64,000 nucleotides of DNA from Escherichia coli O157:H7 (GTDB taxonomy: Bacteria; Pseudomonadota; Gammaproteobacteria; Enterobacterales; Enterobacteriaceae). Location of the stretch: the NCBI RefSeq assembly GCF_013167455.1, contig NZ_CP038328.1; one strand, written 5' to 3'. A program made the position numbers. Below are positions 48,801-50,508 of this stretch, piece after piece. Every line of letters begins with the position of its first letter. Position 1 is the first letter of the stretch.

Positions 48801-50508
48801 GTGGCATTCCGTGCCTTTAACGCTGTCGTGACTGCCACGCTGCATAAAACAAGTCCATAAGTACAACAAATAAATAGTTTATCAGTATGTTAGATATCAA
48901 TCAATTTATTTGAACAAGGCGGTCAATTCTCTTCGATTTTATCTCTCGTAAAAAAACGTGATACTCATCACATCGACGAAACAACGTCACTTATACAAAA
49001 ATCACCTGCGAGAGATTAATTATGAAAACTATCAATACTGTTGTTGCTGCTATGGCTCTTTCAGCTCTGTCATTTGGCGTGTTTGCCGCGGAACCGGTAA
49101 CGGCATCCCAGGCACAGAACATGAATAAAATCGGCGTGGTTTCTGCCGATGGCGCATCCACCCTCGATGCCCTGGAAGCGAAACTGGCTGAGAAAGCGGC
49201 GGCAGCCGGTGCCAGTGGATATAGCATCACTTCCGCCACCAACAACAATAAATTAAGCGGTACTGCGGTAATTTATAAGTAATTCGTAGGACGGATAAGG
49301 CGTTTACGCCGCATCCGGCAACAGATGCCTGATGCGACGCTACCGCGTCTTATCAGGCCTACAAAATCCGAACCGTTGGACGGATCAGGCGTTTACGCTA
49401 CGTCCTGCACAAGTATTTCCCTGTCTGTTTGCCGACAGACGCATATGCTCTAACCCTCATTGATCCTATGTTACCCTTGTTTGCCCGTCCGCCACTGGAC
49501 GGGCTTTTTTTTAGCTGGCTAACTGCTGACAGAAAGCCTGCAACGTCTCTTCCGGCATACCAATCTGCCGCGCCGCATCACAAATGGCCTGCCAGCTTCC
49601 CGCATCCAATGGAATCCCCTGCTCCTGCCGTTCGCGACGCGTGTTCACTTCCCACTCGCCCGGGAGCAAAATCGGCTTATCGTCATCATGCGGCGAGGCT
49701 TTCACCCACTCGGCAAAGGCTTCGGTCTGCGCGCTACAATCCGGCGCGCCGAACAGTTCCGGGTTGATGATGATAGTGGTCATGCAGTTAAGAATGGCAT
49801 CGGGACTGGTTTGTAACGTTTCCTGATGCGTCGTTTTACCGCCAGAAAGCGCCCCGCCAAGAATTTCACACATTGCCGCCAGGGCGTAGCCTTTATGTTC
49901 GGCAAAGGTCAACAGCGAACCCAACGGCGACTCCTGCATTACCGCCGGATTGGTCGTCGGCACGCCGTTAACGTCAATCAGGCAACCTGGCGGCACGGGG
50001 ACGCCTTTATGCCAGGCGACGCGGGTTTTGCCAAATGCAATGGCGCTGGTGGCGTAATCAAGCAACAGCGGAAAATCATCTTTACGTGGGAAAACCACAC
50101 AGAACGGATTCGTGCCAAAGCGGCTGTCGCGACCGTGGAACGGTGCGACCATTGGAATACCGACCACGCTAACAAAGTGGATAGAGACAAACCCCGCCGC
50201 TGCACACTGCTCCGCCCAGTAACCGATACGGCCGATATGATGCGAGTTATGTAGCGCCACGGCAGCAATACCGTGCTGATGCGCTTTCTCAATCCCCAGC
50301 GCCATCGCTTCATGTGCCGCGACCTGACCAAATGCGCGATCGCCATCGAGCGTGACCGCCGCCCCCGCCTCTTTAACGATTTTGGCATGATGGTTAATTT
50401 GCAGGTGCCCCTGACTCCAGGAGCGTACATAGCTTGGGATCATGCCAATACCATGTGAATCATGCCCTGCCAGGTTTGCCGCGATTAAATGATCGGCAAC
50501 TAATTTCG

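Follow-up and report, generated by a model that had tools for sequence, protein, structure and literature searches.

The intergenic region that follows ybiJ in Escherichia coli O157:H7, together with two similar sites nearby, raises a simple question: are the short palindromes found there genuine REPs and, if so, how did they come to lie where they do and what may they do to the transcripts that contain them? All three sites belong to a stretch of 64,000 nucleotides (contig NZ_CP038328.1), hereafter “the window”, which spans ybjI to ybhR/ybhQ and is the reverse complement of the region 825–886 kb of K-12. A preliminary description of the window had placed three REP units after ybiJ (here site 1), two after moeB (site 2) and one, beside a hairpin, between ybiU and ybiT (site 3). 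All six units, as well as the hairpin, were read at these places (Table 1). Altogether, the REP/BIME repeats long familiar from E. coli are genuinely present at the three sites, and as such they are already known and ordinary. What appears mildly new, judging from sequence comparisons, is that the copy after ybiJ is an Escherichia-specific insertion between the stop codon of ybiJ and a conserved small RNA (sRNA), ZbiJ.

Known from the 1980s onwards, REPs are palindromic repeats that are non-autonomous and reach a high copy number, with several hundred in each E. coli genome. Their spread is attributed to a domesticated transposase (TnpA_REP/RAYT) that requires a 5' GTAG and an AA/GC bulge. Three classes are distinguished by length, 35 nt (y), 29 nt (z1) and 37 nt (z2), each with the GTAG in front and the bulge inside the palindrome (PMC8266576). 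Unit matching took as its reference the E. coli REP sequences from the literature that PMC11208160 quotes, the Z1/Z2 names following PMC8266576. K-12 was compared through sequence alignment, its RefSeq record listing no REP features for this region.

Table 1. Features at the REP sites of the window and in their surroundings (positions refer to the window; a dot stands where no strand is assigned).
Feature	Coordinates	Strand	Evidence
Site 1, REP1, Y-type	49286..49319	+	34/35 to Y; 1 mismatch to Y consensus, chance 0; hairpin -14.4 kcal/mol
Site 1, REP2, 37-nt type (Z2)	49327..49362	-	34/37 match; 0 pattern mismatches; hairpin -21.4 kcal/mol, z -6.6
Site 1, REP3, decayed Y-type	49375..49408	+	28/35 to Y; GTTG for GTAG; 20 bits to naRNA4
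ybiE, 19-codon small ORF	49385..49444	-	RefSeq annotation; translation MRLSANRQGNTCAGRSVNA, then stop
ZbiJ (asYbiE), ybiJ 3'UTR sRNA	49416..49512	+	K-12 b4814 transferred via 99% alignment; fold z -5.3
Site 2, unit A, 37-nt type (Z2), CCAG for GTAG	22683..22719	+	34/36; naRNA4 79.6 bits; hairpin -21.8 kcal/mol, z -6.0
Site 2, unit B, Y-type, GTAG-first	22733..22766	-	31/35; 2 mismatches to Y consensus, chance 0; hairpin -20.1 kcal/mol
Site 3 unit, 29-nt type (Z1), TAAT for GTAG	29438..29466	+	26/28; 1 mismatch over 25 nt, chance 0
Perfect 12–13 bp GC-rich hairpin, not REP	29490..29518	.	-25 kcal/mol both strands, z about -5.9
Site 4, empty site after glnQ stop codon	41339..41340	.	K-12 alignment and E. 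coli genome searches

All six palindromes belong to the Y, Z1 and Z2 classes of E. coli REPs, also called palindromic units, and at two of the three sites they are arranged as BIMEs. Five units are 89–97% identical to the published REP sequences, REP3 standing at 80%, and the predicted hairpins of the five good units have energies of -14 to -22 kcal/mol. The AA/GC bulge (sequence GGATAAGGCG...CGCCGCATCC and equivalents) forms an internal loop where expected in five of the six folds (REP1, REP2, both site-2 units and the site-3 unit); at this position, REP3 is decayed, with CA facing a single A, and the fold predicted for it is shifted. The leading GTAG is present in REP1, REP2 and the Y unit of site 2, and replaced in REP3, the Z2 unit of site 2 and the site-3 unit (Table 1), so that these three units, which are decayed or truncated copies, are probably no longer substrates of TnpA_REP. 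Scans with IUPAC consensus sequences (at most three mismatches) recovered REP1, REP2, the Y unit of site 2 and the site-3 unit, for a chance expectation of 0.00 matches (100 dinucleotide-preserving shuffles), while unit A of site 2, which has a 5-nt loop, was found by blastn-short (97% over 35 nt, E 9e-11). Two further partial consensus matches (44835–44849 and 57451–57517) were rejected as chance, neither of them being palindromic and one lying within rhlE. Finally, the only REP-derived family of Rfam, naRNA4 (RF02564), whose model is a Y–Z2 REP pair, was matched at 49289–49359 (78.4 bits, with REP1 as the first half of the match) and at 22686–22763, both scores exceeding the gathering score of 59.5. 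REP3 and the site-3 unit weakly match half of the model, as expected for single units. The search with REP consensus sequences and profiles that the preliminary description had proposed as its own check thus returned matches of both kinds.

The genomic context of the units is also that of REPs. Convergent gene pairs flank all three sites (ybiJ/hcxB, moeB/fsa and ybiU/ybiT), in agreement with the approximately 60% of E. coli REPs located between convergent genes (bioRxiv 10.64898/2026.03.23.713779). The position is extragenic at every site, except that REP3 overlaps the recently annotated ORF ybiE. At site 1, the units alternate as +/-/+ with linkers of 7 and 12 nt, and at site 2 as +/- with a linker of 13 nt; site 3 has a single unit, hence no BIME. 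The characterization of these elements as typical REPs and BIMEs at 3' or convergent intergenic sites is therefore borne out by the class matches, the alternating orientations and the convergent neighbours. When 5,426 complete E. coli genomes were searched, the five REP-containing queries hit a median of at least 4–38 places per genome, whereas the four REP-free segments covering the remainder of the window had a median of one place. At this (megablast) sensitivity, the statement that REPs are the only repetitive DNA of the window holds, and the other repeats inside it are diverged coding paralogues (e.g., ybjI/ybiV and ABC ATPase domains). As to origin, the preliminary description had called the window E. 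coli-like, which agrees with the unit types and with the 100% identity of a 1.1-kb and a 22.7-kb window query to E. coli O157:H7 strain ECP19-598 (NZ_CP066753.1, 3723687–3787686). Conversely, the REPs confirm the Escherichia origin of the window, behaving as would be expected of elements of this known kind.

At site 1, REP1 reads GTAG-first on the strand of the ybiJ mRNA and starts 3 nt past the stop codon of ybiJ (49280–49282), while REP2 reads GTAG-first on the opposite strand. REP3 repeats REP1 in direct orientation 89 nt further downstream, with 83% identity, and its fold is no better than those of shuffled sequences (z -1.2). In the minimum-energy fold, REP1 pairs with REP3 around the REP2 hairpin (z -5.9). 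A single SNP distinguishes K-12 from the window at this site, and the three-unit form occurs in 4052 of the 5426 genomes (75%). In the sampled genomes of the remainder, the site is 89–90 bp shorter, which is exactly the period from REP1 to REP3, and one decayed unit is left; approximately 25% of E. coli genomes thus lack REP1 and REP2, with the ZbiJ region intact. This one-unit allele is a later deletion. The block has also served as a target for IS621, a REP-targeting, bridge-RNA element of the IS110 family. REP2 has the natural target of this element, ATCAGGCCTAC, at 49352–49362, which is unique within the window, and in one strain (E. coli 22AR0322; L010, 530–740) an IS621 copy is inserted in REP2 exactly at ATCAGGCCT|AC, the natural REP target of IS621 (PMC11208160).

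At site 2, the stem of unit A begins 13 nt past the stop codon of moeB (22671–22673). The two-unit long form carried by the window is in the minority (1143 of 5426 genomes, 21%), K-12 and most genomes having a 103-bp deletion; the short form must be the derived one, since the first 19 nt of a REP are left behind in it. In some genomes, we observed a third allele of the moeB/fsa spacer, approximately 91 bp shorter than the form of the window. The stem of unit B shows a compensated double change (GCCAGAT/ATCTGGC for GCCGGAT/ATCCGGC), by which the hairpin is kept.

At site 3, the window lacks 73 bp with respect to K-12, and the missing segment, which is bounded by a 7-bp direct repeat (GCCTGAT), takes in a Y unit and the L motif, along with the GTAG belonging to the unit that is left. 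The alignment thus suggests that this unit is a remnant of the Y–L–Z1 BIME-1 seen in K-12 at the same locus. The complete BIME-1 is found in K-12 and in 2277 of the 5426 genomes (42%), the other 58% presumably resembling the window. The hairpin beside this unit, which the preliminary description had noted as well, is 8 nt past the stop codon of ybiT (29527–29529, - strand) and conserved in K-12. It has no U-tract on either strand and may be a non-canonical terminator or a stabiliser; we rejected it as a further repeat family because it occurs in a single copy per genome. A fourth locus, after glnQ, is empty in the window: in K-12 and 2231 of the 5426 genomes (41%), a 139-bp insertion with a Z1–L–Y BIME-1 is found there. 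Hence, every one of the four BIME loci in this stretch varies among the 5,426 E. coli genomes.

What distinguishes site 1 is the transcript in which it lies. According to the positions of the K-12 annotations of ZbiJ and ybiE, the ybiJ 3'UTR contains the REP block, which is flanked by the stop codon on one side and by ZbiJ on the other; ZbiJ follows directly downstream and ends in an intrinsic terminator (49483–49512, terminator scan). Weak Rfam matches over this terminator (anti-hemB and others) are far under threshold and were dismissed as generic terminator resemblance. A Northern blot has confirmed ZbiJ, which was judged to arise by processing of a longer transcript, and no mapped transcription start site (TSS) or RNase E site accounts for the position of its 5' end (PMC8175672). 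Under the name asYbiE, it represses rpoS when overexpressed (PMC8545128), and zbiJ is among the REP-associated sRNAs in RepRanger (PMC12306157). On the other strand, the last seven codons of ybiE and its stop codon (49385–49408) are REP3 sequence, and its start is antisense to the 5' end of ZbiJ. The ybiE start codon is absent from all six non-Escherichia sequences that were aligned. With a C-terminal end coming from REP3 and an ATG missing in these sequences, ybiE looks like a young, partly REP-derived ORF. Altogether, the preliminary description needs refining, with no correction: REP3 is decayed, three of the six units are without the canonical GTAG, the site-3 unit is to be read as what is left of a BIME-1, and the ybiJ block lies in a transcribed 3'UTR, where it overlaps ybiE.

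To follow the history of this block, ybiJ orthologues (loci L012–L131) were collected by scanning one genome per species for the C-terminus of YbiJ, a sample that includes Citrobacter, Enterobacter, Klebsiella and Kosakonia and leaves out Salmonella, Shigella and E. fergusonii. In at least 44 non-Escherichia orthologues, a ZbiJ-like sequence ends 81–126 nt past the stop codon, and among the matches listed none of the 44 has an E. coli-type REP after ybiJ; two Citrobacter genomes have the first hairpin of ZbiJ starting 5 nt past the stop codon. The three-unit block is present in all three Escherichia sampled (E. coli, E. albertii and Escherichia sp. MOD1-EC7003). Because the block is found in the sampled Escherichia, while the outgroups listed have a ZbiJ-like sequence without REPs, the comparison shows that the ybiJ BIME (49283–49415) was added within the Escherichia lineage to a conserved 3'UTR sRNA locus that was already there. 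In E. albertii (L020, 1364–1420), the junction where the head of REP1 adjoins the stop codon of ybiJ shows a 20-nt duplication, with GTAATTCGTAGG... occurring twice.

By analogy with characterized REPs, the most likely role of these units would be a local tuning of 3'UTRs, through exonuclease block, attenuated transcription and the stalling of ribosomes close to the stop codon. Once transcribed, a REP unit would fold into a stable hairpin acting locally on the 3'UTR, where it could block 3'-to-5' exonucleases, and so protect the upstream message, or attenuate readthrough transcription by partial termination. Moreover, a ribosome that is terminating may be hampered by a hairpin lying no more than approximately 15 nt from the stop codon, which could apply to ybiJ, whose unit starts 3 nt past the stop codon with its stem base at about 9 nt, and to moeB, where the distance is 13 nt, following the 15-nt stop-codon rule for ribosome stalling at REPs as cited in PMC12306157. 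A dual role of REPs as terminators and stabilisers has been described, yet genes with terminal REPs show no global difference in half-life, and the context dependence is large (bioRxiv 10.64898/2026.03.23.713779).

For ybiJ, the transcript would run through three REP hairpins to the terminator of ZbiJ, and a cut in the AU-rich single-stranded stretch just past REP3 would release ZbiJ, leaving the ybiJ mRNA with a 3' end capped by REP hairpins. The motif recognized by RNase E is RN|WUU, which GU|AUU at 49413–49417 fits, one nucleotide from the annotated 5' end of ZbiJ. Taken as a whole, i.e., REP identity, origin, location, the proposed 3'UTR function, the history of the ybiJ block and the proposed processing, we regard this account as very probably correct.

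Three other explanations have to be weighed against it, two of which bear on the nature of the units. The palindromes could be bidirectional intrinsic terminators of the convergent neighbours, outside any repeat family; they are indeed stable GC-rich hairpins between convergent genes, and nearly 40% of the REPs in such positions are within predicted bidirectional terminators (bioRxiv 10.64898/2026.03.23.713779). However, a U-tract follows none of the six units, the sole consensus terminator at site 1 being the ZbiJ hairpin at 49483–49512, and the units, unlike private terminators, recur in many copies and conform to a family consensus, which makes this explanation extremely improbable. A terminator-like activity of REPs is nevertheless compatible with their being REPs in 3'UTRs, and would stand alongside that reading instead of replacing it. 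Scarcely more probable is the idea that each REP pair is a small-RNA gene in its own right, of the naRNA4 type, being transcribed, processed and HU-bound so as to condense the nucleoid. Both pairs exceed the gathering threshold of RF02564, and a nucleoid role has been proposed for REP325 (PMC4550694), but the RF02564 model is itself built on a Y–Z2 REP pair, so that the match merely restates what the units are: a score above threshold shows REP-pair identity, not an HU-related function. Moreover, a scan for promoter-like sites around site 1 found none.

The third explanation concerns the processing of ZbiJ, and would have the REP block determine its biogenesis, a long REP1:REP3 duplex or the REP3 hairpin positioning the endonucleolytic cut that makes the 5' end of ZbiJ; the amount of ZbiJ made, and with it the repression of RpoS, would then differ between the three-REP and one-REP alleles. 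Several observations point in this direction: the 5' end of ZbiJ (49416) is 7 nt past REP3 and remains unexplained by the mapped TSS and RNase E sites, the minimum-energy fold joins REP1 to REP3 around REP2, and the overexpressed sRNA represses rpoS (see above). We nonetheless consider it unlikely, as the at least 44 REP-less outgroup genomes keep a ZbiJ-like sequence abutting the stop codon, a quarter of E. coli genomes do without REP1 and REP2, and the AU-rich stretch fits the RNase E motif by itself, the REPs not being needed for it. The REP-less outgroups and the E. coli genomes (approximately 25%) in which a single decayed REP is left imply that the block is not needed for ZbiJ to exist; along with the lack of a global half-life effect, they stand against a strong or necessary role of the REPs. 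A more ambitious proposal, in which we place slightly less credence still, would be that the ybiJ BIME rewired the locus, uncoupling the stability of the ybiJ mRNA from ZbiJ release, setting the 5' end of ZbiJ and creating the C-terminus of YbiE, so that the three-REP (75%) and one-REP (25%) alleles would form a regulatory polymorphism acting on ZbiJ/asYbiE dosage and, through it, on RpoS translation.

With a local tuning of 3'UTRs as the preferred reading, the sites can be compared to known REP systems. BIME-2, i.e., clusters of Y and Z2 units such as REP325 in yjdM–yjdN (the source of Rfam naRNA4), share with the window their Y and 37-nt Z2 units, the alternation of these in orientation and a 3'UTR location; the linkers are likewise short (7, 12 and 13 nt in the window), and the naRNA4 threshold is passed. 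The window sites differ from REP325 in having two or three units, one of them decayed, instead of 12, and in lying between convergent gene pairs, whereas REP325 is in an operon. The BIME-2 class is known to bind DNA gyrase, and binding and cleavage by this enzyme characterize it along with the composition. By their Y and Z2 composition, the blocks at sites 1 and 2 would fall in this class, and at the DNA level gyrase binding may be expected of them. BIME-1 (also RIB or RIP; a Y unit, an L motif with an IHF site and a Z1 unit) is exactly the architecture of the K-12 alleles at ybiU/ybiT and glnQ/ybiO. In the window, site 3 has the Z1 unit without Y and L, and the locus after glnQ lacks the element entirely, so that no complete BIME-1 of the IHF-binding type is found here.

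The REPs that stabilise mRNAs (malE–malF and glnHPQ type) and the stop-proximal stalling class also have hairpins directly downstream of coding regions, as in the window. From their distances to the stop codon (less than 15 nt), the ybiJ and moeB hairpins would resemble the stop-proximal class. A difference from the stabilisers is that the ybiJ transcript continues past the REPs to a separate sRNA terminator. Finally, REPIN/RAYT (TnpA_REP) doublets share with the window inverted REP pairs, GTAG, the AA/GC bulge and presence/absence variation between strains and species; they differ in that half of the window units lack GTAG and that the polymorphisms of the window are mostly deletions. No tnpA_REP gene is found in the window.

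The window is thus a worked example, within 64 kb, of four polymorphic BIME loci, among which single BIMEs are seen to interrupt a conserved 3'UTR sRNA locus, to supply the coding sequence of a small ORF and to be hit by IS621. These loci exemplify how REPs are currently viewed, as dials on 3'UTRs that vary from strain to strain, and their natural alleles are suited to testing that view.

Other observations were made along the window. Approximately 1 kb that is not in K-12 lies between rimO and dgcI (9395–10390), with a toxin gene of the RelE/ParE family and an HTH antitoxin-like gene. In the annotation of the identical O157:H7 record, iaaA (19520–20485) is a pseudogene with an internal stop and ybiW (24550–26981) is frameshifted. 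Finally, in the dinG–rhlE interval, a 2.8-kb segment (53973–56779) with the type III effector gene espX2 takes the place of the ybiA region of K-12.
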